IMG/VR virus record: IMGVR_UViG_3300032293_001730
Location: 29,894 to 93,893 of that record
DNA from: a virus
Length of the DNA stretch: 64,000 bases
Reading direction: 5' to 3' (one strand)
Both the position numbers and the translations under genes were made by a program. Position 1 is the stretch's first letter. Every line of letters starts with the position of its first letter. The notes beneath the pieces are model-generated. The model worked only from the letters and a program-made list of their open reading frames with translations. It had not been told where the DNA came from and searched no databases. Below, piece after piece: positions 9,216 through 28,565 of the stretch.

Positions 9216-9244
9216 CCAGGGTTCTGGACGGTCCAGAACCCTGG
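9216..9244. repeat. Perfect 29-bp inverted repeat between divergent genes
   Basis: CCAGGGTTCTGGAC-G-GTCCAGAACCCTGG (14-bp arms), followed by TTTTTG. Confidence 0.9.
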
Positions 9245-9280
9245 TTTTTGGCCCGAAAGTACGGAAATGAGGAGACATTC

Positions 9281-9730: not shown

Positions 9731-9753
9731 GTACAATCGGCACAGTGTTGCAA

Positions 9754-11552: not shown

Positions 11553-11663
11553 ATGAACGAAGACTTGAGTCGATTCGTCCCGACGATCATCACGATCTCG
11601 ATCATTGCAGTCTCGACGATCTCCTTTTTCGTCGGCCTCATCATCGGGGCGGCCGCCGGATGA
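11553..11663 (+). CDS. Small membrane peptide
   Basis: RBS GGAGG; MNEDLSRFVPTIITISIIAVSTISFFVGLIIGAAAG; stop overlaps the MTase start. Confidence 0.5.
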   Translation: MNEDLSRFVPTIITISIIAVSTISFFVGLIIGAAAG

Positions 11664-12394
11664 AGAACGTCATTCTCAGGGGCGACTGCCTGAAGGTCCT
11701 GCCGACTCTCCCGAGAGAGAGCGTCGACCTCGTCGTCGCGGACCCGCCATACAACATCGGCGTTGACTACGGCAACGGCAAGAAAGCCGATCGCCGCGAC
11801 GACTACTGGGGCTGGTGCGAGCGGTGGATCGGCTGGTGCTACCGAGCACTCAAGCCGACGGGATCGCTCTGGATCATCAGCGGCCAGGAGCACGGCGCGG
11901 AGATCGACATCGCGATCCAGCGTGCTGGGATGACGATGCGGAACCGGATCACTTGGCATGAGACATTCGGCGTCTATTGCCACGGGAAGTTCGGCCGCAC
12001 GAGCCGGCCGCTCTTCTACGCGACCAAGTCTCCGAAGGGCTTCACGTTCAATCGCGAGGCCGTCACGATCCCGTCCGCTCGACAGGCGAAGTACGGCGAC
12101 AGGCGTGCCGCCCCGGGCGGGAAAATCATGGGCGACGTGTGGCAGATCAATCGCGTCTGCGGCACGTTCAAGGAACGCGTCAAGGGTGTGCCCACGCAGC
12201 TTCCCGTGGAACTCGTGCAGCGAATCATCGGCGTGTCGAGCAATCCCGGCGACATCGTGCTCGACCCGTTTGCAGGCAGCGGAACGTCCCTCGTCGTCGC
12301 GAAGGCGATGGGGCGTGAGGCGATTGGGATCGAACTGAACCCCGACTATGCCGCCATCGCGAGTCGGCGTTTTGAAGGAGCGAAGACAGCATGA
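11660..12394 (+). CDS. DNA N6-adenine/N4-cytosine methyltransferase (beta class)
   Basis: DPPY precedes VLDPFAGSGTS; GIELN. Confidence 0.92.
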   Translation: MKNVILRGDCLKVLPTLPRESVDLVVADPPYNIGVDYGNGKKADRRDDYWGWCERWIGWCYRALKPTGSLWIISGQEHGAEIDIAIQRAGMTMRNRITWHETFGVYCHGKFGRTSRPLFYATKSPKGFTFNREAVTIPSARQAKYGDRRAAPGGKIMGDVWQINRVCGTFKERVKGVPTQLPVELVQRIIGVSSNPGDIVLDPFAGSGTSLVVAKAMGREAIGIELNPDYAAIASRRFEGAKTA

Positions 12395-13043: not shown

Positions 13044-13249
13044 AACTTATTTCGGAAGCCGTTGGCACCATCGCGTTCATCGCGACCTTGTATCTCATCT
13101 TGGGATTCATCGTGATGACGGCGTGGAACTGGTCGATGCCGCCGCTTTTTTCGTTGCCTCGTGCGACGTGGCTCAACGGAGTGGGCCTCGCACTTTTGGC
13201 GGCGTCTTTTCGTCCGGCGAATCGCCCTATTGCAAAGCCGCAGCAATAG
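13040..13249 (+). CDS. Small two-TM membrane protein
   Basis: Hydrophobic ORF coupled to the upstream gene. Confidence 0.55.
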   Translation: MKLISEAVGTIAFIATLYLILGFIVMTAWNWSMPPLFSLPRATWLNGVGLALLAASFRPANRPIAKPQQ

Positions 13250-13258
13250 GTGTATGAT
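13230..13258 (+). promoter_or_regulatory. Sigma70-type promoter (divergent relative of the array promoter)
   Basis: TTGCAA-17 bp-TATGAT, overlapped by the inverted repeat CCTATTGC..GCAATAGG. Confidence 0.65.
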
Positions 13259-14423: not shown

Positions 14424-14452
14424 TTGCCAATGCTGCGGGGTCGGTGTATACT
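14424..14452 (+). promoter_or_regulatory. Array promoter, type B (left palindrome arm degenerate)
   Basis: TTGCCA ATGCTGCGGGGTCGGTG TATACT. Confidence 0.75.
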
Positions 14453-14474
14453 TGAGCGACCACTGGAGGAAGCG

Positions 14475-15011
14475 ATGAAGACCACCATCCTGACACACGA
14501 CGCACTCGGCAACCCGATTCACACTTTCACCGTCACCTTCACCGAGGTATGCGGCGAGGGGCGGTCATGGTCCTGCCGCATTCGAGAAACGGATCGCACG
14601 ATCGTCGGGCAGTGGGCCCGTGCCGTGAACTGTCTCGCCAAAGACCCTTCGATCGGGCGGGTACGGTGCGACAGGCTTGGGCCAAGGATTTTTTGGCAAC
14701 CAGAAGAAGGGCCGAGGCTTGGGGCTCTGGGCACGATCGTCGTCCACCTTGATTCCGGAGAAACGGTCAAGATCAAAGCCGTGGCGACGTACAGCCGGCC
14801 GGCAATCTCCTGGAAGTACGAATACCTGCTCGATTCGGCGGGTCGCGTCCCGCATGTCGGGGCAAAGAAGTGGATCGGCCGAGTAGACGGAGAAGTCCGG
14901 TTCATCGTTCAGAAGGACGGCGGCACCTGGAAATCGTCCACTGCGGACTGGGTGGACCGCTCGAAGACGAAGGAAGAAGCGTTCTCGAAGTGCGAGGAGA
15001 AGCTGAAGTGA
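14475..15011 (+). CDS. Hypothetical protein
   Basis: RBS GGAGG just after the promoter. Confidence 0.6.
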   Translation: MKTTILTHDALGNPIHTFTVTFTEVCGEGRSWSCRIRETDRTIVGQWARAVNCLAKDPSIGRVRCDRLGPRIFWQPEEGPRLGALGTIVVHLDSGETVKIKAVATYSRPAISWKYEYLLDSAGRVPHVGAKKWIGRVDGEVRFIVQKDGGTWKSSTADWVDRSKTKEEAFSKCEEKLK

Positions 15012-15448
15012 AGTACATCTACCACGACGGCGGCCGCGAGGCTGCCGGATACTCGGGCAAGGCCTCGGACTGCGTGTGCCGGTCCATCGCCATCGCGTCG
15101 GGCATCGACTACCAGGAAATCTACGATCGTCTCGCGGACGGCAACGCCACGCAGCGTGGGGCGTCTCGTGGCCGCACGGCACGCAACGGCATCATCACGC
15201 AACGCCAGTGGTTCAAGGACTACATGGCGTGGCTCGGGTTCGAGTGGACGCCCACGATGAAGGTCGGCCGGGGCTGCACGGTCCACCTCCGGTCCGAGGA
15301 GCTTCCCCTCGGTCGACTCGTGGTGGCGGTGAGCAAGCACTACACGGCGGTGATCGACGGCACGATCTACGACACGCATGACTGCTCCCGTGGTGGGACG
15401 CGGTGTGTGTACGGGTACTGGACCTGGAAGGGAGAGGCTCATGTCTAA
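15008..15448 (+). CDS. Conserved-looking phage protein (DGGR..AG...DCV.RSIAIA...H)
   Basis: GTG overlaps the upstream stop; Cys...His pair could be a peptidase-like dyad (inference). Confidence 0.6.
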   Translation: MKYIYHDGGREAAGYSGKASDCVCRSIAIASGIDYQEIYDRLADGNATQRGASRGRTARNGIITQRQWFKDYMAWLGFEWTPTMKVGRGCTVHLRSEELPLGRLVVAVSKHYTAVIDGTIYDTHDCSRGGTRCVYGYWTWKGEAHV

Positions 15449-15875
15449 AGCTGACTACGAAATCGTTCTCGCGTTTCGCGACATCGTGTTCATCGTCGAC
15501 CTCGACCGAGGCGGGCGGAGCGTCACGAACGACGCCGAGGCTGTCTGGGCTGAGGTCCAGTCGCAGCGTCCAGGCGTTCGACTCGTCTACCGCGACTCTA
15601 TGGGGCGGTGGGACGAGATCATCGGCGGCTCGGAGTTCAAGCCATACCACGGCGACCGTCCGGCGATCGAGGTCTGCGAGTGCTGCGAGCGAGTGTTCAG
15701 GAAGTGGGACCGCTGCACGAACGGCCGGTGCCCGAGGTGCCACGACAGGCATTGCACGAGCGGCGGCGAGACGTGCCCAGGTCACGGCCGGCGTTGGCCT
15801 GAGGGCGTCGTCGGGGACGTCGAGCACGAGAGGAAGATCGAGGGTCTCAGGAAGAAATATGGGGTGACGGCATGA
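15441..15875 (+). CDS. Hypothetical protein with Cys-rich C-terminus
   Basis: SVTNDAE.V, YRDSMGRWD, CECC..C..C..C. Confidence 0.6.
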   Translation: MSKADYEIVLAFRDIVFIVDLDRGGRSVTNDAEAVWAEVQSQRPGVRLVYRDSMGRWDEIIGGSEFKPYHGDRPAIEVCECCERVFRKWDRCTNGRCPRCHDRHCTSGGETCPGHGRRWPEGVVGDVEHERKIEGLRKKYGVTA

Positions 15876-16291
15876 TCTACGCGAAGCACAAACGATTCGT
15901 TCTCTACGGCGGCTATCTCGGGAACAGCAAGCTCACGTTCCGATTCGATCCTCACGACGACAATTCCAGCGTCGAGAAGAAGATCGGGCAACGGTGGGTG
16001 CCTGTGTTCCCTCGCAAGTATCGCTTCTGCGAGGACCTCGCCGATGAGGCTCGCATTTGCGAGGCGAGGGCAAGGCGAATTCCGGAGGACCTGTTCCGGT
16101 GTGAGTGGCGGATGATCAGCGATCGGCTCGACGCTCCAGTCAAGGGCTCCGGCGCCGTCCACTACAAGCCGACGAGGTGTGGGTATTTCTGCGGAACTGA
16201 CAAGCACGTCACCTCCAACGAGCGGACGACGGACGTCCGCAAGGTGACGTGCGATGGCTGCAAGAAAGCTATACGGGAGGCTGTGAGATGA
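15872..16291 (+). CDS. Hypothetical protein
   Basis: Coupled ORF; C-terminal VTCDGC. Confidence 0.55.
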   Translation: MIYAKHKRFVLYGGYLGNSKLTFRFDPHDDNSSVEKKIGQRWVPVFPRKYRFCEDLADEARICEARARRIPEDLFRCEWRMISDRLDAPVKGSGAVHYKPTRCGYFCGTDKHVTSNERTTDVRKVTCDGCKKAIREAVR

Positions 16292-16566
16292 AAAAGATCG
16301 CCTGGATCACCTGGGGCCTGCCCCAACCGCAAAAGGTCGAGGTGGTCGGTCCTCTGAGGCCCGGCAACACGATCGTGAAGTTCAAGGGCGTGTCGCCGTC
16401 CGTACCGGACGAACACATCCACGAGACGGAAGCGGCCGCGTGGTCGAGACTCATCAGAGACGCAGAGAGAAACTTGGATCACGCAGTCGCGAGGCTGGAG
16501 TGGCTCCGCCAGGAGCGAGAAAACTGTTTGACCAATACACCGACAGCGGAGACAATGAACCCATGA
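16288..16566 (+). CDS. Hypothetical protein
   Basis: RBS GGAGG; coupled ORF. Confidence 0.55.
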   Translation: MKKIAWITWGLPQPQKVEVVGPLRPGNTIVKFKGVSPSVPDEHIHETEAAAWSRLIRDAERNLDHAVARLEWLRQERENCLTNTPTAETMNP

Positions 16567-16835
16567 TGAAGAAACCCAAATACGTTCTGGAGCCGAGCAG
16601 CGAGCGTCGCGTCGCGGCCCGCGAGGCCGCCCGTATCCTCGACTGTTCGATGGGGCACTTGCGAGCACTGGCCCGCAAAGAGGTCCTCAAGTCCTGGAAG
16701 ATCGGCCCGAGCACGGTGCTGTACAGCCTCGACGAGATCGTGGCCTACGGCACTGAAAAGGCCAAGGGCCGGAAGGCCGGCAAGGTTCGCGGCGCTCGGC
16801 CCCAGGGATTCTCGCCAGACCTATCCGGCGAATAA
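16563..16835 (+). CDS. Excisionase/MerR-like HTH protein
   Basis: AAREAARILDCSMGHLRALARKEVLKSWKIG. Confidence 0.75.
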   Translation: MMKKPKYVLEPSSERRVAAREAARILDCSMGHLRALARKEVLKSWKIGPSTVLYSLDEIVAYGTEKAKGRKAGKVRGARPQGFSPDLSGE

Positions 16836-16868
16836 AACTCCCGTCTTTCTCGGCCATTTGCGGCCCAC

Positions 16869-16897
16869 TTGCAATGCACCGAGACCGGTGGTATGAT
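16869..16897 (+). promoter_or_regulatory. Array promoter/operator, type A
   Basis: TTGCAA TG CACCG AGAC CGGTG G TATGAT. Confidence 0.85.
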
Positions 16898-16922
16898 GCT
16901 GGGGTCACGAGGAGACATCGAC

Positions 16923-17138
16923 ATGAAAACGGTTCGTCCAATCTCGTTCTTCCCGCCGTCGTCCGGCAAGGGCAAGTGGCACGCGGCCGCTGCGTGCAGC
17001 ACCCTCTCGGCGTGCGGCTCGGGGGCGACGGTCAACTCGCTCGGGTTTCAGCGGATTCAGGTCGAGGGCGGAGTCGATGCGAAGTGGGTTCATCCGATTT
17101 GTTGCCGTCGGTGTCTCAAGCAAGCCTGCGGGGAGTAA
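16923..17138 (+). CDS. Small Cys-rich hypothetical protein
   Basis: RBS GAGGAGA; WH..C..CG..CCRRC. Confidence 0.6.
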   Translation: MKTVRPISFFPPSSGKGKWHAAAACSTLSACGSGATVNSLGFQRIQVEGGVDAKWVHPICCRRCLKQACGE

Positions 17139-17142
17139 CACG

Positions 17143-17661
17143 ATGCCCTACAAATTCCTTCGAGTCACGAGCAACGACGGCCGGTGCGAGAAGTGCGGCA
17201 CGGCCTGCCCGAAGCGTCGGGTCGAGGTGCTGCCCGTCGACGCCGATGGCAACGCCTGCGGAGAGGTGCAACTCTGGGGCGTGAACTGCGCCGCCTTCGC
17301 CCGCTACGGCAGCAAGTCGCAGCGGCACCAGCAGGCCGTCGTCAACGAGGCCGTTACCGCCGAGGCTGGTCGCGCCTACTGGGAGAAGGCCCGCCTGGGG
17401 CGTGTCGCCGTCGCCGGTCAATCCTACGACTTCGGCGGGCCGGCGACTGTCGTAGTCTGCGGCAGCGGCGAGAACTCCTGCCCAGAGGGGCTTGCCAACC
17501 GCCTGTACCACCGCACCGGCCGAAACCTGATCGGCAGCTACTTCGCTCGCGGCCCCCAGGGCGAGGTTGTGCGTGTCGACGGCAGCGACGCGGCCGACGT
17601 GCAGTTCTTCGCGGATCGTGGGTATGTTCAGTGCTCGAACCCCGTGGAGGCTGCGACATGA
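17143..17661 (+). CDS. Hypothetical Zn-ribbon protein
   Basis: CEKCG...WGVNCA. Confidence 0.6.
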   Translation: MPYKFLRVTSNDGRCEKCGTACPKRRVEVLPVDADGNACGEVQLWGVNCAAFARYGSKSQRHQQAVVNEAVTAEAGRAYWEKARLGRVAVAGQSYDFGGPATVVVCGSGENSCPEGLANRLYHRTGRNLIGSYFARGPQGEVVRVDGSDAADVQFFADRGYVQCSNPVEAAT

Positions 17662-17879
17662 ACAAGCCCCAAAGGCTGTACGAGGTCACCACACCGGCTG
17701 GCAAAGTGCTGCCGCTCCGGCGAGGCCTCCAGTTCCGCCACAAGCGAATCATCGACGCCCAGTGCGTCGTCACCCGGGTGTGTCGCGGCATGGTGTACTA
17801 CAAGGTCCTCCCCAATAGCTCCAGCGACTGCTTCCCCGTCGACCAGTTCGACCGATGGGCCGAAATCCCCGTGGAATAG
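17658..17879 (+). CDS. Hypothetical protein
   Basis: Coupled ORF ending GTGGAATAG just before the next promoter. Confidence 0.55.
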   Translation: MNKPQRLYEVTTPAGKVLPLRRGLQFRHKRIIDAQCVVTRVCRGMVYYKVLPNSSSDCFPVDQFDRWAEIPVE

Positions 17880-17885
17880 CCCCCC

Positions 17886-17914
17886 TTGCAATGCACCGAC
17901 GTCGGTGCTATACT
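17886..17914 (+). promoter_or_regulatory. Array promoter/operator, type A
   Basis: TTGCAA TG CACCG ACGT CGGTG C TATACT (perfect 16-bp palindrome). Confidence 0.9.
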
Positions 17915-17937
17915 TGGGGCACCCCAGGAGAAATACC

Positions 17938-18873
17938 ATGACCGACCTCAGCATCCTCTCGCCCTCCGAAGTCGACACGATCTACCTGAAGCGGCTTGCC
18001 TCCTACGACCGTGCTGCGAACGCCCTCGGCTATGCGACCGACCGCGTCCTCCGCGAGTCGGGCGATCAAGTCGGCGTCCAGACCGGCCGCCGCGCATGGT
18101 CCTGGCACATCGTCCGCAAGGGCACGACCCTGCCGAGCTACCCGGTCTACGCCGACGTCCAGCCGCACCTCCTGACGGTCCAAGAGTGCGTCGACGGCCG
18201 TCTGGCGTCGGCTGAAAGCCTGGACGCCCTGGCCCAGGCCACGACCGTCTGCCGCGAGGCCCAGTCGGCCTGCCGCGAGGTCGAGGTCGAGTACGCTCGC
18301 CGACCCTGGAGTCGCTACTGGCTCGTCACGTCGAGCGACGGGCACATCCACCGCTCGTGCCATTGCTCGACGTGCAATAAGGGCCTCCGCCGCACGGGGT
18401 TCGCTCTGACGCCGTTCCTGAGCGGCAAGTCTGACGCCGATGCCGTTGCCGACCTGGGCCCGGCGCTGTGCAGCGTCTGCTTCCCGGACGCCCCGGTCGA
18501 GTCGAGGGAGCAGTCCCGCATCCCGGCCCGGCTCGCCCTGGCCCTCGCCGAGGAGGGCGTCGAGGCCTTCCAGAAGGCTCGCCAGGAGGCATCGGCCAAG
18601 CGGGCCGCTCGGTGCCCCGGCTCGGGCCAGCAAGGCATCCTGGACGGCCACCGGGCCTTCCACAAGTGCCCGGTCTGCGGCGAGTCTCAGCGGGCCACCG
18701 CAGGCGGCAAGTTTCGGCCCCACAAGCCGGCCCAGTTCTACATCGAGAACAACGACTACAAGGCCTGGAACGGCTCTGCCTGGGGCCCCCGCACGAAGGC
18801 CGCGATCTACGGGTCTTTCGACGAGGCCGAGGCGGTGGCGGCTCAGGTCAACGGCAAAGCGAGGAGGAAGTGA
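17938..18873 (+). CDS. Hypothetical Cys/His-rich phage protein
   Basis: GHIHRSCHCSTC, LCSVCFPDAPV, CPGSG..CPVCG; RBS CAGGAG. Confidence 0.7.
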   Translation: MTDLSILSPSEVDTIYLKRLASYDRAANALGYATDRVLRESGDQVGVQTGRRAWSWHIVRKGTTLPSYPVYADVQPHLLTVQECVDGRLASAESLDALAQATTVCREAQSACREVEVEYARRPWSRYWLVTSSDGHIHRSCHCSTCNKGLRRTGFALTPFLSGKSDADAVADLGPALCSVCFPDAPVESREQSRIPARLALALAEEGVEAFQKARQEASAKRAARCPGSGQQGILDGHRAFHKCPVCGESQRATAGGKFRPHKPAQFYIENNDYKAWNGSAWGPRTKAAIYGSFDEAEAVAAQVNGKARRK

Positions 18874-19118
18874 TGGAACTCGAAGAACCGCTCGATCCGA
18901 AGGAAGCCGCAGCCGCCATCCGGGGCATCGTGACGAACTGGAGGGCCTGCACTCAGGCCGCCGGGCTCGCCAAGAAGGCCGGGAGGGGCCGGGACGCCGT
19001 CGAGCCCCTGGCTGCCTCCCTGGCCGCGATCATCGAGGCTGCGGCGTGGCTGTCCCAGGGCGACGGCGAGGACCGGCTCGCCCTGGCCCGGGCGGTGGCC
19101 GAGGGGCTTGTGTCATAG
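18873..19118 (+). CDS. Hypothetical protein; stop supplied by box A
   Basis: Ends CTTGTGTCATAG (LVS*). Confidence 0.6.
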   Translation: MELEEPLDPKEAAAAIRGIVTNWRACTQAAGLAKKAGRGRDAVEPLAASLAAIIEAAAWLSQGDGEDRLALARAVAEGLVS

Positions 19119-19134
19119 GCCGAAAACGACCCCC

Positions 19135-19163
19135 TTGCAATGCACCGAGGCCGGTGCTATACT
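19135..19163 (+). promoter_or_regulatory. Array promoter/operator, type A
   Basis: TTGCAA TG CACCG AGGC CGGTG C TATACT. Confidence 0.9.
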
Positions 19164-19205
19164 TGAGGCAGACGGGACGAGAAACCACTAACCAGGAGAC
19201 GACCA

Positions 19206-19919
19206 GTGAGCACTTTCATCCGACAAGCGTTCGAGACCTACAAGCGACTCTTCGAGGCCCGTCAGGCCGCCGTCGCCGCCGGCCATTACATCCTCCAGGG
19301 ACCGTCCCTTGTCGGCTACCTGGGCGACGGCGTCACTGAGGCTGTGCCGACGTGCAGAGACCTCCAGAAACGGTACTTCGAGGCCCAGGCCTCGCTTCTC
19401 GAAGGCCTCGATGCCGTGATCAAGTCGAAGACCGGATTCGCCGGCTCATTCGCTGCCCTGGTCGACGCCCAGCGGCTGCACGGGTACGTTCCGACGATCC
19501 GCCCCGATGGCGACGACGAACTTGCCGTTCTGGCCGATGCCTACGACTTCGCCGTCGAGAGACAGGCCCTGCCGAGCGAGTGCTACCGGGGCGTCCAGGC
19601 CCAGGCTGCCAAGCCCCGCACGGTCCACCTCCTCGACGACCTGGGGGTCTACAAGGCGACCCTGAAGCGGAACTTCGCCGACAACGACCGGGGCGCCGAG
19701 TTCGACCGCGACCGGGAACTGCTCGCCCGCAGGACGCAGCGGTACACGCTCGAAGAGGCCGAGGTGCTGCTCGGGTGGTGCTCCACGTCGCACGACGACT
19801 GCGTCGACGAGAACCCAGAGGACTACAGCCCGATCGAGGTCTACACCGCCCGGCAGAAGCTCCTCCGGCGGGACGACGCCGTGGCTCGCCTGGAGGCCTT
19901 GAAGGCGGCCGTGCCATAG
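19206..19919 (+). CDS. Hypothetical protein
   Basis: AACCAGGAGA leader; ends GTGCCATAG. Confidence 0.7.
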   Translation: MSTFIRQAFETYKRLFEARQAAVAAGHYILQGPSLVGYLGDGVTEAVPTCRDLQKRYFEAQASLLEGLDAVIKSKTGFAGSFAALVDAQRLHGYVPTIRPDGDDELAVLADAYDFAVERQALPSECYRGVQAQAAKPRTVHLLDDLGVYKATLKRNFADNDRGAEFDRDRELLARRTQRYTLEEAEVLLGWCSTSHDDCVDENPEDYSPIEVYTARQKLLRRDDAVARLEALKAAVP

Positions 19920-19923
19920 CCCC

Positions 19924-19952
19924 TTGCAATGCACCGAGGCCGGTGCTATACT
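19924..19952 (+). promoter_or_regulatory. Array promoter/operator, type A (identical to the 19135 copy)
   Basis: TTGCAA TG CACCG AGGC CGGTG C TATACT. Confidence 0.9.
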
Positions 19953-19989
19953 GCCCCCAGTCGATCACCACCAGCCAGGAGCCAAACCG

Positions 19990-20871
19990 ATGAGCAGCTA
20001 CCCCCGAGCCAAGATCGCCAGCCCCGCCAAGATCGTCGTCGACCCCTGCTTCCGCTGCGGCGGCGGTGGCGTCGTCCCGCCCTGGGGCGAGTGTTTCCGC
20101 TGCGGTGGCAACGGCAAGGACCCGACTTACCGTAGCTGGGCCTATCCGTCCGACTGGACCGACGACCAGTGCAAGGCCCACGAGGCCGCTCGCGACGCCA
20201 GGAACGAGGCGGCCCGGGGCCGGGCCCACGCCAAGAAGCAGGCCGAGGCCACCCGCGTCTGGGAGGCCAACGTGGCGGCCCACCCGATCCTGGTCGAGGC
20301 CAAGGCGGCCCTCCAGGCGTACTCGGACGGCGAGCCCGAGCCCGTCCTCGAAGGCCTGTACGGCGAGGAGACGCACGACTCGATCCGGGCCCGCAACGAG
20401 TACGCCCGGCTCAACTCCCTGCCGCCGTTCGTGTACGACATCGTCTCGAAGGCCAGCCGGTTCCAGGTCAGCGAGAAGCAGGCGGCGGCCGTCGAGAAGG
20501 CCCTCGCCGACCGGGACTCGCGGCACGTCCGGGACGAGGCCCGCAAGGCGTCGTTCAAGGACATCCCCGCCGGCCGGGGCGAGGTCGAGGGCGTGATCGT
20601 GAGCGTCAAGAACACCTCGACTCAGGTGGGCTACCGCACGGTCTCGCAGACCAAGGTGCTCGTCCAGTGCGACGGCTACCGCCTGTACGGCACCGTGCCG
20701 TCGGCTGTCACCGCCATCGCCTACCGCGACGGCTACCCCGCCGATGCAGCCTCCAAGCTCCAGGGCCTCCGCATTCGCTTCACCGCTACGGTCCAGCCGA
20801 AGGAGGCCGGCTTCGGCTTCTTCAGCCGCCCGACCGGCGGCGAGGTGCTCGACGCGGCGGCCACCGCCTGA
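19990..20871 (+). CDS. Hypothetical protein with DnaJ-like Zn finger and beta-rich (OB-like) C-terminus
   Basis: CFRCGGGG..CFRCGGNG; ends TGA followed by ATTGTCCGGATAC. Confidence 0.65.
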   Translation: MSSYPRAKIASPAKIVVDPCFRCGGGGVVPPWGECFRCGGNGKDPTYRSWAYPSDWTDDQCKAHEAARDARNEAARGRAHAKKQAEATRVWEANVAAHPILVEAKAALQAYSDGEPEPVLEGLYGEETHDSIRARNEYARLNSLPPFVYDIVSKASRFQVSEKQAAAVEKALADRDSRHVRDEARKASFKDIPAGRGEVEGVIVSVKNTSTQVGYRTVSQTKVLVQCDGYRLYGTVPSAVTAIAYRDGYPADAASKLQGLRIRFTATVQPKEAGFGFFSRPTGGEVLDAAATA

Positions 20872-20907
20872 ATTGTCCGGATACACCAACCCCCAGGAGA
20901 CTTGCCC

Positions 20908-21393
20908 GTGAACGCCTCCCCAGTCACCACGTTCGCCAAGCTGGCCGAGTCCGCCGGCTGGCGGTTCGAGACAGCCTGGACCGACCGTGAGCCCAACCCT
21001 GAGGCCCTGGAGATCGCCGGCGCCCGCTACGCCACGCTCGTGTCTGCCGACGGGCTCGTGAAGGTGGGGCTCGTCGGCACGCGGCTCTACTACCACGGCG
21101 GGCGGGTCTGGTGGGGCGACCCCTGCTTCGACATCGAGCCCGACCGCGTCACGGTCGCCGGGATCGTCGTCGACCCGGGCCACCGTCGCCAGAGGCTCGG
21201 GACGGCGGCCGTGCGGTCGCTCGTGGACGTGGCCGACCAGGGCGGCTTCCGGCTGCTCCTGGAGGCCCAGCCGATCGGAACGGGCATCAGCCGGCGGAAG
21301 CTGGTGCAGTGGTACAAGGGCCTGGGGTTCGAGCCCGCCTACCCCGGTGAGGGCGAGACGATCTTGTGTCATAGGCCGAAAGCGGCCTGTTGA
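20908..21393 (+). CDS. GNAT-family acetyltransferase
   Basis: [14 protein letters not shown] (motif A); LVQWYKGLGF (motif B). Confidence 0.8.
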   Translation: MNASPVTTFAKLAESAGWRFETAWTDREPNPEALEIAGARYATLVSADGLVKVGLVGTRLYYHGGRVWWGDPCFDIEPDRVTVAGIVVDPGHRRQRLGTAAVRSLVDVADQGGFRLLLEAQPIGTGISRRKLVQWYKGLGFEPAYPGEGETILCHRPKAAC

Positions 21394-21418
21394 CAATGCA
21401 CCGACCCCGGTGTATACT
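21390..21418 (+). promoter_or_regulatory. Array promoter/operator, type B
   Basis: TTGACA ATG CACCG ACCC CGGTG TATACT. Confidence 0.9.
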
Positions 21419-21460
21419 TGGGGGACGACGGACGAAACACCACCTATCAGGAGACGAACC

Positions 21461-21886
21461 GTGAGCGACAATGCCACCTATTTCATCAAGCTGAAGAGCC
21501 TGTCGAATCAGGCGTGCGAGACGCAGACGATCACCAAGGCCAACGAGAGCACGCCCGTGTTCGTCGCTCGGGTTCAGGCCGTCGCCAGGGGCTGGGGGCG
21601 GGGCAACGGCAGCACCGCCGTTCAGGTCTCCGTCGAGACCTACGGCGGTGAATGCGTCGTCTCGGCTCACGCCTTCGCCATCCCCGCGACGCCGGTCGAG
21701 GTCGACGAGGACGAGCAGCCCGTCACGATCACCATCACGAAGGCTCAGGCCGCGATCGTCCTGGCGGGCCTCTCAAGGCGGTACATCGAGCTTGAGTGCC
21801 TCGGAGGCTGGGAGGCGAATGTCCTCGGCCAGGAGACAAAGGCCACCTACCAGTCGATCGACAAGCAGGTCTACGGCGACGCTTGA
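21461..21886 (+). CDS. Hypothetical protein
   Basis: CAGGAGA leader; ends TGA TTGTCCGGATAC. Confidence 0.65.
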   Translation: MSDNATYFIKLKSLSNQACETQTITKANESTPVFVARVQAVARGWGRGNGSTAVQVSVETYGGECVVSAHAFAIPATPVEVDEDEQPVTITITKAQAAIVLAGLSRRYIELECLGGWEANVLGQETKATYQSIDKQVYGDA

Positions 21887-21932
21887 TTGTCCGGATACGC
21901 AGAACCATCACCCTCAACCAGGAGACTTACCA

Positions 21933-22463
21933 GTGAACATCGACAAGCCGATCCGAATCGAAGCGGGCAAGTACGAGTATCGCGGCTTCACGATCGAGCG
22001 GGCCACGAACATTCGCGGCTGCCCCTGGATCGTGAAGGGGCGTGGGCTTGGGTGGCAGCCCTGCTTCAAGACAATCCTCCGTGCATGGCAAGAAATCCGC
22101 TACTGGGAGCACACGTTCGCCAATGGCGGGAGGCTCTCGCCGGCCACGCTCAAGGCCTTCGCCCCCGCGAAGACCATCAAGCTGCCCCCTGCGTTCTACC
22201 AGGACCACTCGGAGCGAGACTTGCCCACACCCGAAGACATCGGCAATGCCAAGAGTTACGTCCTGGTCCGGGCCGACGACCCCGCCCTGCCTGAGCTTCT
22301 CAACGACGCCGAGTTCTGCGCCGATCCCTGGGGGCCTGACGCCGAGTGGCTCGGCGGGCTCAAGGCCTCAGCCAGGGCGACGATCAGGGCCATCCGGGAC
22401 GTCACCGGCTGGGACGACGCAAGTGATACGGTCAAGCGGCTGCGGAAGCCGCAAAAGGCCTGA
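21933..22463 (+). CDS. Hypothetical protein
   Basis: AACCAGGAGA leader, GTG start. Confidence 0.65.
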   Translation: MNIDKPIRIEAGKYEYRGFTIERATNIRGCPWIVKGRGLGWQPCFKTILRAWQEIRYWEHTFANGGRLSPATLKAFAPAKTIKLPPAFYQDHSERDLPTPEDIGNAKSYVLVRADDPALPELLNDAEFCADPWGPDAEWLGGLKASARATIRAIRDVTGWDDASDTVKRLRKPQKA

Positions 22464-22474
22464 TTTCAGGCCCC

Positions 22475-22503
22475 TTGACAATGCACCGACTGCGGTGTAT
22501 ACT
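22475..22503 (+). promoter_or_regulatory. Array promoter/operator, type B
   Basis: TTGACA ATG CACCG ACTG CGGTG TATACT. Confidence 0.9.
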
Positions 22504-22520
22504 TGGGGCACACGGGAGAC

Positions 22521-22736
22521 ATGACCATGAGCAAGCAGTCGATCAAGTGGCACGACATCCGGTGGCTCCAGGGGCCGACGCACTACTACGCGAACATCGG
22601 CGGCACCCTTCACCAGATCAACCGCTCGACGGTCTCGGCCTGGGGGTTCCGGGCATCGGGATACGACCTCGTGGTCGCCGGCCGGACGGTGGGCAGCTTC
22701 CGCCGGCTCGCCGACGCGAAGGAGGCCTGCCGATGA
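22521..22736 (+). CDS. Small hypothetical protein
   Basis: RBS GGGAGA; F.RLADAK motif. Confidence 0.55.
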   Translation: MTMSKQSIKWHDIRWLQGPTHYYANIGGTLHQINRSTVSAWGFRASGYDLVVAGRTVGSFRRLADAKEACR

Positions 22737-22942
22737 CCACCGCAGCCATCAAGCGAGCCCTGGTAGCCATGACGAGCGGCGAGTGCCGCTGGATCGGCCG
22801 CGAGGACGTCCACGTCTACTGCCGCAGCCCGCTCAACCACGGGAGGACCTACCGCGTCGTCACGGCCGACCGGGACTACGAGGGGCAGCCGTGGATCGAG
22901 GCGGAGGCCGCCCTGGCCGTGATCAAGCAGCTTGTGTCATAG
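22733..22942 (+). CDS. Small hypothetical protein; stop supplied by box A
   Basis: Ends CTTGTGTCATAG (LVS*). Confidence 0.55.
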   Translation: MTTAAIKRALVAMTSGECRWIGREDVHVYCRSPLNHGRTYRVVTADRDYEGQPWIEAEAALAVIKQLVS

Positions 22943-22945
22943 GCC

Positions 22946-22974
22946 TTGCATAGCACCGACGTCGGTGCTATACT
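22946..22974 (+). promoter_or_regulatory. Array promoter/operator, type A
   Basis: TTGCAT AG CACCG ACGT CGGTG C TATACT. Confidence 0.88.
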
Positions 22975-23016
22975 GGGACAGTCGAGAACGAAACACCACT
23001 AACCAGGAGACGAGCC

Positions 23017-23355
23017 GTGAAAGACCCCCTCAAGAACATCATCAAGTCCGCCGGCTTCGAGGACGTGACCTGCGACGTCCCTGTGTCCTGCTACTCCCTG
23101 CCCCTGACGTTCCGGGCATTCCACGCCCTGCACGCCCTGGACCACGGGCTCATCGGCACGCCCGACTACCTGGGCATCGCCTACTTCTGGGCGCACGACT
23201 ACAAGTTCTATCTCCGCGAGGCGACGCAAAAGCAGCGGAAGATCGTCCACGATCTGTTCCTCAAGGCGGGGCTCGCCCTCGACGGGGTCAGTCCAGAGCA
23301 CGCCGCGATCGTCGAGAAGCACCTCGGCAAGCGGCTCAAGAAGGTCTACGGCTGA
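23017..23355 (+). CDS. Hypothetical protein
   Basis: AACCAGGAGA leader. Confidence 0.65.
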   Translation: MKDPLKNIIKSAGFEDVTCDVPVSCYSLPLTFRAFHALHALDHGLIGTPDYLGIAYFWAHDYKFYLREATQKQRKIVHDLFLKAGLALDGVSPEHAAIVEKHLGKRLKKVYG

Positions 23356-23385
23356 TACCATCCACCCCTAACCAGGAGACCACCC

Positions 23386-23652
23386 GTGAACAACAAGCTG
23401 CTACAAGACGAGCTTCGCACCTGCATCCGCCTTCTCCGCTGCTACGCGCGAGCCGAGCGAGATCGCGGAGACGCCCATCAGGCTGCCGGCATCGGCAGGC
23501 ATATCGACCGGATATGCGCCGTGTCGCTTCACGCCGGGGGGGTGAAGGAGATCGAGCCGGGCGTGTTCTCGACTGGTGGGCTCTTTGCCCGCCGCTACCT
23601 CGACCTGACGGACGGCACGAAGCAGCACTTGCGGGAACTGCTCGCGTCATAG
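23386..23652 (+). CDS. Hypothetical protein; stop supplied by a box A variant
   Basis: AACCAGGAGA leader; ends GCGTCATAG GCC. Confidence 0.6.
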   Translation: MNNKLLQDELRTCIRLLRCYARAERDRGDAHQAAGIGRHIDRICAVSLHAGGVKEIEPGVFSTGGLFARRYLDLTDGTKQHLRELLAS

Positions 23653-23705
23653 GCCGCGCCCGAAAACGTCAAGCGATCCACCACCACCAACCAGGAGACT
23701 TGCCC

Positions 23706-24029
23706 ATGAACACCCAAAAGACCATCACATTCGGCAAACGGCACAGCGTCGCGGTGACGTTCTACAAGGGATCGGACGGCCTCTGGCACGCCCACGGTGG
23801 GCTCCTGGTCGTCCCAAGAAAGAGCCTCAAGGCAGCCCGCGCGGCGGTCGCCAGTCGCCTCCAGAGCCTCAGCCGCCTCGGCCCGGGCTCGAAGGTGAAG
23901 CTCTGGGGCTCGACCTGGAGGGTCGTCGAGTGGCAGCCCGAGAACGGCAAGGGCGGGGCCTACTGGCTCCGGAACTCTAAGGGCGAGGACGCCGTGGCCG
24001 GGCCCGACGAAGTGGAGCGTGTGTCATAG
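23706..24029 (+). CDS. Hypothetical protein; stop supplied by box A
   Basis: AACCAGGAGA leader; ends GTGTCATAG (RVS*). Confidence 0.6.
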   Translation: MNTQKTITFGKRHSVAVTFYKGSDGLWHAHGGLLVVPRKSLKAARAAVASRLQSLSRLGPGSKVKLWGSTWRVVEWQPENGKGGAYWLRNSKGEDAVAGPDEVERVS

Positions 24030-24032
24030 GCC

Positions 24033-24061
24033 TTGCCAATGCACCGATCCCGGTGTATACT
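24033..24061 (+). promoter_or_regulatory. Array promoter/operator, type B
   Basis: TTGCCA ATG CACCG ATCC CGGTG TATACT. Confidence 0.88.
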
Positions 24062-24104
24062 GCACCCAGACGACGACGAAACACAACTAACCAGGAGACA
24101 TCGA

Positions 24105-24419
24105 ATGATCATCTACAGCGTCGACAAGCCGGGCACCCCGAAGGTTTCCAAGGGAGACCTGGAGTACACGAGTCAAAAGCACGTCGCGTTCCAGGGCCTC
24201 TGCCGCGTCGAGGCGGCCGCCGACGAGTTCTTCGGCGGCAGTCGCTCGAAGCCCTACGTCGGCCGCGTCCTGGAAAGCCCCACCTGGGGGAAGCTCCTGG
24301 CCGAGGCCAGGAAGGTCCAGCGGGCCACCCGGGACGAGCACCACGTCTTCCTGGAGGGCGCCCGCGTCCGGTACGTCGACGGCGGCGTCCAGGTGATCGA
24401 GCTTTTCTTTGGTTCCTGA
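24105..24419 (+). CDS. Hypothetical protein
   Basis: AACCAGGAGA leader; PTWGKL..EA...DEHHVFLEG. Confidence 0.65.
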   Translation: MIIYSVDKPGTPKVSKGDLEYTSQKHVAFQGLCRVEAAADEFFGGSRSKPYVGRVLESPTWGKLLAEARKVQRATRDEHHVFLEGARVRYVDGGVQVIELFFGS

Positions 24420-24423
24420 GGCC

Positions 24424-24452
24424 TTGCAATGCACCGGCATCGGTGCTATACT
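24424..24452 (+). promoter_or_regulatory. Array promoter/operator, type A
   Basis: TTGCAA TG CACCG GCAT CGGTG C TATACT. Confidence 0.9.
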
Positions 24453-24494
24453 TGGGACACGACGAACGAAACACCATTCACGAGGAGACGACCA

Positions 24495-25112
24495 GTGAGC
24501 ACCACCAACTACATCCCGAAGCCCGAGTCCGTCGAGCTTCACCTCGGCAGCGACCCCCATTTCACGAAGAAGTACGGCAAGGCCGTCAAGGCCCTGGGCG
24601 GACGGTACAGTGAATGCCGTGGCGACGCCCACCGTCGGTTCGTCACGCTGCCCTGGAACGATGAAGGCCGGTCGCTGGCAAACAAGCTGGTCGCCGAGTT
24701 CGGCACCGGCAGCCTCCTGTGCGGCAAGACGACGCTGATCGTGCGGGGCAGTGAGACGTTCCGGGGGAAGCACGTTCACGCCTGGGTTGTCGTCCACAAG
24801 GTCGCTCGCGGCTCCGTCGACCCGTGCGGGGTGCTGCTCGGCCTGTACGAGGCCGCTTTCCTCCTGGCCTTCCCTGAGGCCGCGTTCCCCGAGCCGCCCG
24901 TCGTCAAGGCCCCGAAGCCGCTCGCCGCCGACCTGTACCTCAACACGCCGGTGAAGTTCCACGCCGTCCTCGAAGCCCTGCAACAGTACATCGACAACGG
25001 CAACGACGCAGACCACCTCGCCGACGACGAGGAACTTCAGGCCAAGCTGGAGGCCGCAGAGGCTTTCCGCGACCAGCTTGACGGAGTCCTGGCGTCCCTC
25101 GCCAATGCCTGA
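24495..25112 (+). CDS. Hypothetical protein
   Basis: GAGGAGA leader; ends TGA TTGTCCGGATAC. Confidence 0.65.
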   Translation: MSTTNYIPKPESVELHLGSDPHFTKKYGKAVKALGGRYSECRGDAHRRFVTLPWNDEGRSLANKLVAEFGTGSLLCGKTTLIVRGSETFRGKHVHAWVVVHKVARGSVDPCGVLLGLYEAAFLLAFPEAAFPEPPVVKAPKPLAADLYLNTPVKFHAVLEALQQYIDNGNDADHLADDEELQAKLEAAEAFRDQLDGVLASLANA

Positions 25113-25158
25113 TTGTCCGGATACGCTTACCCCCCACCACCCAGCCGGGAGACGAACC

Positions 25159-25434
25159 GTGAGAGAGAACATCCTCAAGCTCACCGACAAGGAAATCGAG
25201 TTCATCAAGAACAGCCTCCGCCGCTCCTCGCAGCGAGGCGAAGACGAGGAGCGTGTCGCCGAGCAGGCCGGCAACGCCGAAGCTGCGGCCTTCTATCGCC
25301 AACTGGCTAAAGACGCGACGAGCCTGCTTCTCGTCATCGAGGTGCAGGTCGCCAAGCCTGACGAAGACAGCGACGAGTGCCCGGAGTGCGGCGAGGACTA
25401 CGGATACTGCCAGTGCGAAGACGAGGAGAACTGA
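25159..25434 (+). CDS. Hypothetical protein with C-terminal Zn-knuckle
   Basis: CPECGEDYGYCQC. Confidence 0.6.
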   Translation: MRENILKLTDKEIEFIKNSLRRSSQRGEDEERVAEQAGNAEAAAFYRQLAKDATSLLLVIEVQVAKPDEDSDECPECGEDYGYCQCEDEEN

Positions 25435-25534
25435 CCTTCCACCTAACCCAGCAAGCCCGCGACATCCTGAAGTACGCCCAGGCATCCACCCACGTCCAGA
25501 GACAATCGAAACTCGAAGCGAAGGAGGCGGTTAA

Positions 25535-25867
25535 GTGAACAAGCTCAAATTCGTTAAGCCGCTCAAGAGCGACCAAAGACACTACGTCCACGGCGAGAGA
25601 ATCGAGCGGTGGGGCTGGTATCGAGACAGCGAGTACCGTCAGGTCTTCGCGTATGTCATCACAGAAAGCTGCAAGGCCTATCGCTGGCCGGGCGGCAAAC
25701 TGGTGGCAGAGCATCGCGAGAAGCCGATGGCCGTGGATCACTACGCATACTCTCGGCAAGCGAGGTGGCCGACGGCCCCGTGGCTCCAGCGTTCGTACAC
25801 GAAACTTGCGTCGCTGTGCCGCAAGGATTTTGAGACTCGATCGAAAACCCAGGAGACCGTCCAGTGA
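25535..25867 (+). CDS. Hypothetical protein
   Basis: RBS AAGGAGG. Confidence 0.55.
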   Translation: MNKLKFVKPLKSDQRHYVHGERIERWGWYRDSEYRQVFAYVITESCKAYRWPGGKLVAEHREKPMAVDHYAYSRQARWPTAPWLQRSYTKLASLCRKDFETRSKTQETVQ

Positions 25868-26091
25868 GCATCCCCCTGAACCTCACCGCAAGCCAGCAGT
25901 CGCTCCTCGCGGAGCTTTGCTGCGTCATCGCGGACCTCGCCCGCACCAACGACGACTGGACGGCCGTGCCGCCCGTCGAGGCTGTGCGGACCTGCAACAA
26001 GCTGCTCGAAGTCGTCGAGACGTTCGACGCGAGCAGCCAGACCTTCGGCGTCCTCTACGACAAACTCCACCGCACGGGAGCCAATGCATGA
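25864..26091 (+). CDS. Hypothetical protein
   Basis: CCAGGAGA leader; coupled. Confidence 0.5.
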   Translation: MSIPLNLTASQQSLLAELCCVIADLARTNDDWTAVPPVEAVRTCNKLLEVVETFDASSQTFGVLYDKLHRTGANA

Positions 26092-26339
26092 CCACCTACA
26101 CCACCACCCGCTCCCGTTTCTCAGACCCCAGTCAGATCACGCCCGGCAGCATCGTGAGACTCGGCGGGGGGCTGTGCAAAGTGATCACGCCTCGCATCCT
26201 GGAGTGCTGCCACACGGGGCGATGGTTCGTCGACGCGCGAGCGTTTCGAGGAGGCGAGCACGCCGAGCCGGTGAGGGTCGAGTACGTCGGCTCTCAGTCA
26301 GACCCGGCCGTCAAGGCCATGATCGAGGAGAGCAAGTGA
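26088..26339 (+). CDS. Hypothetical protein
   Basis: Coupled ORF. Confidence 0.5.
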   Translation: MTTYTTTRSRFSDPSQITPGSIVRLGGGLCKVITPRILECCHTGRWFVDARAFRGGEHAEPVRVEYVGSQSDPAVKAMIEESK

Positions 26340-26509
26340 GCCGAATCATTCTCACCGCCGAAGCAGCGAAGATTCTCGGAGTCTCGACGTCGACCGTCCG
26401 CAGACTCGCGAAGAGAGGCGACATCAAGTCTTGGAGACTTGGAGTCGGGTCCTATGGGTTCAAACTCGAAGACGTCCTGGCACGCAAGGAGAAGACATGC
26501 AAAGACTGA
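26336..26509 (+). CDS. Excisionase/MerR-like HTH protein
   Basis: ILTAEAAKILGVSTSTVRRLAKRGDIKSWRLG. Confidence 0.8.
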   Translation: MSRIILTAEAAKILGVSTSTVRRLAKRGDIKSWRLGVGSYGFKLEDVLARKEKTCKD

Positions 26510-26619
26510 TCAACGCCCTCGTGCTCGTGCGGCTCGGGCAGGAACTCGGCGCCGACACGCCCCTCGCCCGAGCCATCGCCCAACTCGTCGAAGAGGCCCT
26601 AAAACTGGGCGTGTCATAG
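26497..26619 (+). CDS. Small peptide; stop supplied by box A
   Basis: RBS AAGGAG; LVLVRLGQELG; ends GGCGTGTCATAG (GVS*). Confidence 0.55.
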   Translation: MQRLINALVLVRLGQELGADTPLARAIAQLVEEALKLGVS

Positions 26620-26624
26620 CCCCC

Positions 26625-26652
26625 TTGCAATTCACCGACGTCGGTGTATAAT
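26625..26652 (+). promoter_or_regulatory. Array promoter/operator, A/B hybrid (16-bp spacer)
   Basis: TTGCAA TT CACCG ACGT CGGTG TATAAT. Confidence 0.85.
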
Positions 26653-26693: not shown

Positions 26694-27074
26694 ATGTCCG
26701 CTTTCGTGTGCAGCAAAAACCATATCGCAGCCGTCGCCGCTTTCGGCTCGTCGAAGCACGCGTTCCTCGGTGGCGGCTACGCCAGCTTCGACAGCATCTA
26801 CAAGACGCTTGCCGATGCCAACGTCCGCAGCGTGTGCCACCGCTACGGCGAGTCCGCCGATGAGTACGACAGCCTCCTGCCCCCGCCCGACAGCCGCCGG
26901 GCGCCGAAGTGCTCCGCCATCGAGATCGTCAAGTTGTGCGACTGCCTCGACTACCAGTCCAGCGAGACCGACGACTGGCGTGAGTCGGAAGCCTGCAAGC
27001 TGCTCGGCCGCATTCGCAACGCGGCGATCAACGCACTGCCCGGCTACGACGAGGCAAAGTGGGCTATCGGCTGA
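26694..27074 (+). CDS. Conserved-looking phage hypothetical protein
   Basis: MSAFVCS..HI, NVRSV.HRY, CLDYQSSE..DW; ends TGA TTGTCTGGACAC. Confidence 0.7.
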   Translation: MSAFVCSKNHIAAVAAFGSSKHAFLGGGYASFDSIYKTLADANVRSVCHRYGESADEYDSLLPPPDSRRAPKCSAIEIVKLCDCLDYQSSETDDWRESEACKLLGRIRNAAINALPGYDEAKWAIG

Positions 27075-27119
27075 TTGTCTGGACACACACACCACCCTCA
27101 ACCATCAGGAGACCTACCC

Positions 27120-28227: not shown

Positions 28228-28562
28228 TGATCACGATCGAGAGACATGATGAGTATCGAGTCTCGGAGCGTGTGGTGCTTCGCCCAGGCGACGTGTTCCG
28301 CGCGACCGATGGCCCGTACTGGCGGTCAGGCAAGGACGAGATCAGCTTGAAAGCCCCAGGCCCGTATCGCTTCGTGTCGTTTGCGAAGCGAGGCGCCGTC
28401 GGCTGGATCGAAGCGTTCGACAAGTTTGGCAACTTCACGGTGCTTCACATCGAGGGCCGTCGCAAGAAGATCGACACCGCGATCGTGGCTCGTCCGTACC
28501 GTGTCATCGGAAAAAAGCGGCCTCAATTGCAACGGCTTGACAATAGGAAGAAGGGTCGCTAG
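28227..28562 (+). CDS. Hypothetical protein
   Basis: RBS AAGGAG; coupled. Confidence 0.55.
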   Translation: MITIERHDEYRVSERVVLRPGDVFRATDGPYWRSGKDEISLKAPGPYRFVSFAKRGAVGWIEAFDKFGNFTVLHIEGRRKKIDTAIVARPYRVIGKKRPQLQRLDNRKKGR

Positions 28563-28565
28563 AAT
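28537..28565 (+). promoter_or_regulatory. Sigma70-type promoter without the palindrome
   Basis: TTGACA-17 bp-TAGAAT, preceded by the box-A-like GTGTCATCGG at 28501. Confidence 0.7.

Follow-up and report, generated by a model that had tools for sequence, protein, structure and literature searches.

A repeated sigma70-like promoter with a palindromic spacer heads gene cassettes in an uncultured, probably temperate siphovirus

The closest described counterparts of the gene array reported here are the promoter-early stem-loop (PeSL) cassettes of the T4-type phages RB49 and phi1, in which many strong sigma70-like promoters contain an inverted repeat, often between the -35 and -10 hexamers (Arbiol et al. 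2010, PMC2839356). The PeSL repeat unit reaches as far as the Shine-Dalgarno sequence and the start codon; the small ORFan genes behind it lie in a plastic part of the genome, and close relatives differ from one another by insertions, deletions and replacements at the repeats. We describe an array of similar plan in a 64,000-nucleotide stretch of DNA (the window, in whose coordinates all positions are given), which comprises bases 29894-93893 of a 93,893-bp IMG/VR virus record (IMGVR_UViG_3300032293_001730; rated 96% complete). The array consists of eleven sigma70-like promoters, ten of which contain the dyad CACCGNNNNCGGTG in the spacer between the hexamers while the eleventh has a degenerate version of it. 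The analysis is one of sequence, and promoter activity, protein binding and regulation are predicted throughout. Our preferred reading, to which we would give a probability of about 0.55, is that the dyad, in the extended form CACCGR-NN-YCGGTG, is the operator of a phage-encoded dimeric DNA-binding protein that controls all of the cassettes.

The likeness to PeSLs has its limits. PeSLs are found in lytic T4-type myoviruses, whereas the phage described here is an unrelated, apparently temperate siphovirus with a G+C content of 61%, and there is no sequence similarity between the two systems; PeSL stems (GGGG...CCCC) are variable in position and terminate transcription, whereas the arms of the present dyad are invariant, are fixed in position to within 1 bp, have no associated T tract, and are accompanied by a conserved helix-turn-helix (HTH) gene. 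A second point of comparison is provided by the Aca repressors of anti-CRISPR operons (PMC6765145, PMC9410906), where a very strong early phage promoter has inverted repeats in or beside its core, and where the operon of small accessory genes has the gene for a small HTH repressor at its 3' end. Two HTH genes of the window, those starting at 16563 and 26336, are likewise the last genes of accessory-gene operons, but an Aca repressor usually controls a single operon and the Aca proteins belong to other HTH families. The Cluster O mycobacteriophages contain a 17 bp dyad, TGTTCGGNNNCCGAACA, with invariant arms and a variable centre, which is present in more than 30 copies per genome and whose binder has not been identified (PMC4351075). 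Those repeats are scattered and often lie inside genes, in contrast to the promoter spacers occupied here. The repressor c of the Streptomyces phage phiC31, a temperate siphovirus, acts at many dyad operators, one for each of a series of near-identical early promoters; these promoters are not known to be of the sigma70 consensus type, the repeats are 17 bp long, and the repressor is larger and of another family. In architecture and evolution the closest published system is the PeSL cassette, and in regulatory logic the closest are the Aca repressors and the phiC31 repressor. The general logic is known from these three systems, and the array adds an example of it and not a new principle.

The ten exact matches to the dyad (Table 1) compare with 0.20 on average and at most 2 in dinucleotide-preserving shuffles, and there are no further copies in the whole 93.9-kb record, a count that a first-pass annotation of this DNA had recommended. 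Every one of the ten fills the spacer of a -35/-10 pair, the spacer being 17 bp long, or 16 bp at 26625; the -35 hexamer is TTGCAA, TTGACA, TTGCCA or TTGCAT, and each copy matches the sigma70 consensus at 9-11 of 12 positions. A scan of the whole genome for TTGNNN-N16-18-TAYANT returns 11 matches. Nine of these contain the dyad and a further one is the degenerate copy at 14424; the dyad copy at 16869 is missed because its -10 hexamer, TATGAT, does not fit the pattern. An independent consensus scan of the interval 12-30 kb identifies 13 promoter-like sites on the plus strand, against 1.6 expected, and none on the minus strand, in agreement with the first-pass annotation that all copies point the same way. 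That annotation had described ten full dyads and a degenerate copy at 14424 in sigma70-like promoters, had listed the N4 centres, and had noted that 19131-19163 and 19920-19952 share the same 33 bp, all of which is borne out. It had given the -10 hexamer as TATACT, which is true of eight copies and fails at 16869 (TATGAT) and 26625 (TATAAT), and it had placed the start codons 18-44 bp downstream; measured from the end of the -10 box the interval is 22-43 nt, and the start codons have a strong AGGAG-type ribosome site. Three other conserved sigma70-like promoters, at 9710, 13230 and 28537, contain no dyad, from which it follows that RNA polymerase does not need it and that only a subclass of promoters is marked by the dyad.

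The promoter is only a part of the repeat unit, a feature that the earlier annotation had missed together with the role of the repeats as seams of cassette exchange. Alignment of the eleven copies shows that shared elements extend well beyond the two hexamers: most copies have the box GTGTCATAG(G/C)CC upstream, and some a small GC hairpin nearby; a GC-rich discriminator (TGGGGCA) lies downstream of the promoter, and in seven copies a long conserved leader (GACGAAACACCACTAACCAGGAGACGA) continues up to the start codon. The copies fall into two registers, TTGCAA-TG-dyad-C-TATACT and TTGACA-ATG-dyad-TATACT, between which the dyad is shifted by 1 bp while the 17-bp spacer is unchanged; in the first of these the right arm of the dyad supplies the TGn of an extended -10 element. 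Behind each cassette promoter are one to five genes. The first genes behind the ten promoters have no Pfam match and hit only PHROGs families without known function, and neither Pfam nor PHROGs revealed a known anti-CRISPR or anti-defence gene among the cassette genes.

Several details of the repeat unit concern its junctions with the flanking genes. The box GTGTCATAG, or a variant with one mismatch, lies just upstream of promoters at 19110-19118, 19911-19919, 21366-21374, 22934-22942, 23644-23652, 24021-24029 and 26611-26619, and at least three well-supported genes (18873-19118, 19206-19919 and 23386-23652) use the TAG within it as their stop codon. A common gene end does not fully account for the box, however, because at 21366 the corresponding frame is open for 7 codons only. 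The gene at 20902-21393 ends in a TGA that lies inside the -35 hexamer TTGACA (21390-21395) of the next promoter. The ribosome-site context of the conserved leaders, (A/C)CAGGAGAC, recurs at internal cassette genes (20893-20907, 23371-23385, 25849-25863 and 27105-27119), and so would appear to be the standard translation start throughout the phage.

A pattern scan of IMG/VR for clusters of promoter plus dyad identified four relatives, G001 (96 kb, 98% complete), G002, G003 and G004, with 12, 10, 10 and 7 dyads respectively. Because this search forced the arms to match, the early regions were re-scanned with a promoter model that ignores the spacer, and this yields 45 promoters of the family, 36 of them with perfect arms. 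In the imperfect members one arm is altered (CTGCG, CACCT, CGGCG, CGTAG or a 1-bp deletion), or both arms in three cases, and among all 45 there is no compensating change in the opposite arm. At the position orthologous to the 14424 promoter the left arm is degenerate in each of the three phages whose sequence covers it, G001 and G003 among them. Dyads at 25277 and 92521 in G001 and at 45105 in G003 lie inside coding sequence without promoter boxes, and we have taken them to be chance occurrences and not real sites.

Among the 36 copies with perfect arms there is no change at any of the ten arm positions, while 21 different N4 centres occur. The first base of N4 is a purine in 36 of 36 and the last a pyrimidine in 29 of 36, although the two are complementary in only 7 of 36. 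Such a preference, symmetric (R...Y) but independent of pairing, would be expected of a site read by a two-fold protein as CACCGR on each strand, and not of a longer stem. The same 14-mer is found in both orientations relative to the promoter among G000-G004 (AGGC four times and GCCT four times; GCAT and ATGC; ATCC and GGAT; ACCC and GGGT), as expected if the site is functionally symmetric.

More distant relatives, found through their HTH protein, contain different dyads at the same spacer position. In clade B (L173 and L174) these are ACGGA-SS-TCCGT, TGCTGA-CG-TCAGCA and GTGTGA-CG-TCGCAC, and the spacers also hold mixed sites in which half-sites of two types are joined, such that self-pairing is impossible. 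In clade C the promoter TTGCTA-GTTC-TAACG-N4-CG(C/T)TA-CAAT occurs twice, keeping the 5-N4-5 geometry with a different half-site; the gene for the candidate regulator there adjoins the integrase, and there are two promoters only and no ORFan array.

Comparison with the closest relatives also shows where the genomes have been rearranged. BLAST alignment of 8-31 kb of the window with G003 gives blocks of 88-97% identity, and nine of the 20 block ends fall in promoter units, against 0.8 expected (P = 3e-8); with G001 the corresponding number is five of 32 (P = 0.009). Unrelated genes replace one another between relatives directly behind the promoters at 14424, 21390 and 24424, G003 has extra cassettes behind its counterpart of the 16869 promoter, and the cassette at 22511-22944 is missing from G003, where a single hybrid promoter is present instead. 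The homology stops at the margins of the whole repeat, the outcome expected of homologous recombination, and the homology blocks with G003 and G001 give no sign of a crossover fixed at the dyad centre. As judged from these alignments, the repeats are seams of cassette exchange in a PeSL-like pattern, and by analogy homologous recombination between repeats of 50-100 bp would be sufficient to explain the mosaicism.

These seams are also what would be expected of an alternative in which the dyad functions as a PeSL-type element, with a stem-loop in RNA or single-stranded DNA attenuating read-through and insulating the units, the repeats serving mainly as recombination homology, and no dedicated repressor involved. 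We consider this improbable, but it is the strongest of the alternatives and draws weight from a direct precedent: the PeSLs of RB49 and phi1 are strong sigma70-like promoters preceding ORFans, have their stem-loop mostly between the -35 and -10 hexamers or over the -10, and are associated with cassette shuffling (PMC2839356). The dyads of the window can also fold, forming hairpins of 5-8 bp with free energies of -6.6 to -11 kcal/mol. However, the folding z-scores against shuffled sequences are only +0.1 to -2.0, the stem is short (5-6 Watson-Crick pairs) and has no T tract, and a terminator scan accepts none of the dyads, finding overall 12 terminators against 11.9 expected and thus no enrichment. 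The absence of compensatory arm changes in the 45 copies, the non-complementary half-sites of clade B, the R...Y preference without pairing, and the retention of a dyad in clade C with only two promoters and no ORFan array are similarly at odds with a stem-loop function.

The comparative evidence thus favours a protein site over a hairpin. The first-pass annotation had proposed a dimeric-protein operator and not an RNA hairpin, and the invariant arms, the lack of compensation, the R...Y preference, the promoters without a dyad and the clade B hybrids all agree with an operator. Its dismissal of the hairpin was firmer than is warranted, because the published PeSL stem-loop between the -35 and -10 is read as a terminator, and by analogy with these terminating stem-loops in the same position (PMC2839356) a structural role of the dyad is possible.

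If the dyad is an operator, as we favour, the best candidate for its binder is the winged-helix protein encoded at 16563, to which both gene co-occurrence and a dimer model point. Six translationally coupled genes follow the half-operator promoter at 14424. The gene for the candidate is the last of them, 34 bp separating its end from the first full promoter-operator, and the other five have no Pfam or PHROG function. Each relative has a homologue, with an identity of 98% in G003, 87% in G001, 58% in G004, 54% in L172, 47-49% in L173 and L174, and approximately 30% in L175-L183, and in each of them there is a dyad-bearing promoter within about 50 bp downstream of the gene. In clades A, B and C the predicted recognition helix is SM[GS]H[LIV]R, SM[KR]QVR and SMGRVR, respectively, and these changes, which parallel those in the half-sites, are suggestive at most. 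In G004 (L166) the homologue has its own promoter, at 10562-10590, with the right half-site only (CGGTG), in parallel to the arrangement at 14424.

An AlphaFold model of the 16563 protein (predicted local distance difference test score, pLDDT, 75) has the beta-alpha-alpha-beta-beta-alpha order of a winged helix and superimposes on Xis of mycobacteriophage Pukovnik with a root-mean-square deviation of 1.2 A over 46 residues and on BldC with 1.3 A over 48 residues, with weak Foldseek E-values (0.03-0.12); look-alikes of the model in the structure atlas carry HTH_17. When two copies are modelled together the complex scores 0.48, compared with 0.00 for the best of three controls, and the runs agree in at least 95% of contacts with a partner pLDDT of at least 74. 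Of 30 proteins solved as pairs of one chain, 20 reach the 0.48 mark, as does one of 23 solved as single chains; these counts are only rough because our own alignment was used. The predicted interface is formed by exchange of N-terminal strands, and the modelling supports a putative dimer of the 16563 protein.

The first-pass annotation had named four HTH proteins, 9281, 9754, 16563 and 26336, as potential binders; all four do have excisionase or HTH_17 matches, weak to moderate in strength, and 16563 is the one that co-occurs with dyad promoters in every relative. The clearest HTH_17 match is that of the 26336 protein, which we have rejected as the conserved regulator because G001, G003 and G004 retain the dyads without a detectable orthologue.

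From the sequence pattern, its conservation, the gene co-occurrence and the mosaic seams observed here we infer a circuit, including the sign and timing of regulation and the identity of the regulator, that would operate as follows. The eleven sites would be copies of one regulatory cassette, made up of an optional upstream box, a sigma70-type promoter, the discriminator, the leader and the genes behind it. On entry of the phage DNA, host sigma70 polymerase would fire all of these strong promoters and the accessory genes would be made, among them the 16563 protein, whose synthesis from the half-operator promoter would continue; being made from the only family promoter with a half-site operator, the protein would escape full self-repression. 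As its dimer accumulates on the dyad, at about -27 to -13 relative to the inferred start in the other ten promoters, polymerase would be blocked and the whole set turned off. Such a shut-off could represent silencing of early genes in lytic growth, or silencing in the prophage; Pfam finds no CI-type repressor among the minus-strand and neighbouring genes, and the same circuit could for this reason be the one that silences the promoters in a lysogen. Either as a by-product or as a second role, the repeats of approximately 50-100 bp would provide homology for recombination through which cassettes are swapped, deleted or inserted between related phages.

A number of observations weigh against this reading. 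The Pfam HTH_17 score of the 16563 protein is 19.1 bits, below the gathering threshold of 27. Proteins of the Xis/BldC type usually bind head-to-tail direct repeats and not palindromes. The covariation of recognition helix and half-site involves three clades only and is tied to their overall divergence, and gene conversion among the repeats could have contributed to the invariance of the arms. The binder could instead be another of the small conserved proteins, encoded at 9281, 9754 or 8841-9125, or a host factor. To these may be added the ability of the dyad to form a hairpin of the stability given above, and the published terminator reading of a stem-loop in exactly the same position.

In the host-factor alternative, a transcription factor of the host recruited by the phage would tie the accessory genes to a host signal; in its favour, Pfam finds no classical CI-type repressor in the phage, and phages are known whose repeated promoters contain sites for host factors. 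We think this unlikely: a scan of 185,579 species genomes for promoter plus dyad returns 38 single matches in unrelated taxa, a number of the same order as the 17 expected by chance, and the dyad sequence varies between phage clades along with the phage-encoded HTH protein. We regard as very unlikely, and reject, a loading site for a Q- or AlpA-like antiterminator, in which RNA polymerase would take up a phage HTH protein bound in the spacer and carry it along through the cassettes. AlpA and lambda Q do bind elements between the -35 and -10 (PMC9371919), and the broad group of excisionase/AlpA-like HTH proteins includes the candidates. However, the AlpA element is an asymmetric 6-mer bound by a single molecule and requires a -10-like pause site after the start (PMC9371919), whereas here the site is a symmetric 14-mer, the pause element is absent, with a weak -10-like hexamer in just one of the 11 initial transcribed regions, and terminators are not enriched. 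The suggestion that the dyad is the core of a site-specific recombinase moving cassettes in integron-like fashion, which the first-pass annotation had entertained, is scarcely credible: cassettes are indeed gained and lost exactly between promoter copies and the phage encodes a tyrosine integrase, but arms of 5 bp (5-6 bp at most) around a 4-bp centre are far below the size of known tyrosine or serine recombinase cores, strand exchange would be blocked because N4 differs between neighbouring copies, and the homology ends at the edges of the whole repeat and not at the dyad centre. The dyad was also considered as a target of the phage DNA methylase, for which a 10-base specificity would be unusual.

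Returning to the operator reading, the array is a well-defined and clean case for experiment, with one promoter, one operator and one specific, testable candidate regulator whose fold would be unusual for such a role, and with repeats that double as seams of gene exchange. If the 16563 protein binds the dyad, an excisionase-type fold would be acting as a global repressor of early genes, and the dyad could be used as a search key for accessory genes, possibly for host takeover or anti-defence, in related metagenomic phages. A bolder version, which we offer as a long shot, is that a small Xis-like winged-helix protein and not a CI-type repressor is the master switch in this clade of temperate phages, silencing at least 10 strong promoters through a single dyad, and that its complexes with DNA also guide the exchange of cassettes, making the array a self-regulating, integron-like system of gene capture.

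Table 1. Features of the window in order of position (promoters, operators and protein functions are predicted; the four-letter sequences are the N4 centres of the dyads).
Feature	Position	Strand	Remarks
Tyrosine integrase	7845-8720	-	Pfam Phage_integrase and Phage_int_SAM_1
Excisionase-like protein adjoining integrase	9281-9730	+	Rival candidate for regulator; PHROG 2907 excisionase, E=3.7e-5
Sigma70-like promoter without dyad	9710-9737	+	TTGAAA-16-TACAAT; precedes small HTH gene 9754-9963; conserved in G003
Small HTH protein	9754-9963	+	Excisionase/HTH_17 family, E=0.008
Phage DNA methylase (N6/N4)	11660-12394
Sigma70-like promoter without dyad	13230-13258	+	TTGCAA-17-TATGAT; conserved in G003, variant in G001
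Promoter with half operator	14424-14452	+	TTGCCA-17-TATACT; CTGCG-GGGT-CGGTG; heads six-gene operon ending in candidate regulator
Six tightly packed genes (14475, 15008, 15441, 15872, 16288, 16563)	14475-16835	+	Overlapping stop and start codons
Candidate regulator	16563-16835	+	90-aa excisionase/MerR-like winged-helix protein; PHROG excisionase, E=0.002
Promoter-operator copy 1	16869-16897	+	Dyad 16877-16890, AGAC; -10 TATGAT; first gene 16923-17138
Promoter-operator copy 2	17886-17914	+	Dyad 17894-17907, ACGT; first gene 17938-18873
Promoter-operator copy 3	19135-19163	+	Dyad 19143-19156, AGGC; long conserved leader; first gene 19206-19919
Promoter-operator copy 4	19924-19952	+	Dyad 19932-19945, AGGC; first gene 19990-20871
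Promoter-operator copy 5	21390-21418	+	Register 2 (TTGACA-ATG-dyad-TATACT); dyad 21399-21412, ACCC; first gene 21461-21886
Promoter-operator copy 6	22475-22503	+	Dyad 22484-22497, ACTG; first gene 22527-22736
Promoter-operator copy 7	22946-22974	+	Dyad 22954-22967, ACGT; first gene 23017-23355
Promoter-operator copy 8	24033-24061	+	Dyad 24042-24055, ATCC; first gene 24105-24419
Promoter-operator copy 9	24424-24452	+	Dyad 24432-24445, GCAT; operon 24495-26509, last gene is second HTH_17 gene
Second HTH_17 protein	26336-26509	+	57 aa, paralogue of 16563; Pfam HTH_17 37.5 bits (cut-off 27), E=2.8e-9; PHROG 66, E=1e-8
Promoter-operator copy 10	26625-26652	+	Dyad 26633-26646, ACGT; 16-bp spacer, TATAAT; first gene 26694-27074
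Sigma70-like promoter without dyad	28537-28565	+	TTGACA-17-TAGAAT; array end, before 28621 and replication genes; conserved in G003, diverged -10 TATCCT in G001

The gene content of the record suggests that the phage, which is uncultured, is a temperate siphovirus. Terminase, portal, protease, capsid and tape-measure genes lie in the first 30 kb of the record and identify it as a siphovirus, and the tyrosine integrase suggests a temperate life style. No near relative was found among cultured phages at the DNA level, and the best match to the capsid protein is 29% identical. To the right of the integrase are the two small excisionase-like proteins (9281 and 9754), a deacetylase-like protein, a DUF3310 protein and an N6/N4 DNA methylase; the promoter array follows at 14.4-26.7 kb, and beyond it are replication genes encoding an SNF2 helicase, a PDDEXK nuclease, a primase-polymerase and a UvrD helicase.

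Some further features of the genome lie outside the array. The sole tRNA call in the record is doubtful. The deacetylase-like protein of the early region, encoded at 9956-10840 near the DUF3310 protein and the methylase, is a member of the histone deacetylase family (Pfam Hist_deacetyl, E=1.3e-33). An inverted repeat at 9215-9248, with perfect 14-bp arms (CCAGGGTTCTGGAC GGTCCAGAACCCTGG) followed by TTTTT, separates the leftward gene 8841-9125 from the rightward gene 9281, and could be a bidirectional terminator, an operator of a switch region or part of attP. Following the tape-measure gene there is a giant open frame of more than 2,250 codons (3-6764), presumably encoding a tail protein, whose fractional G+C content of 0.56-0.60 is below that of the remaining genome.

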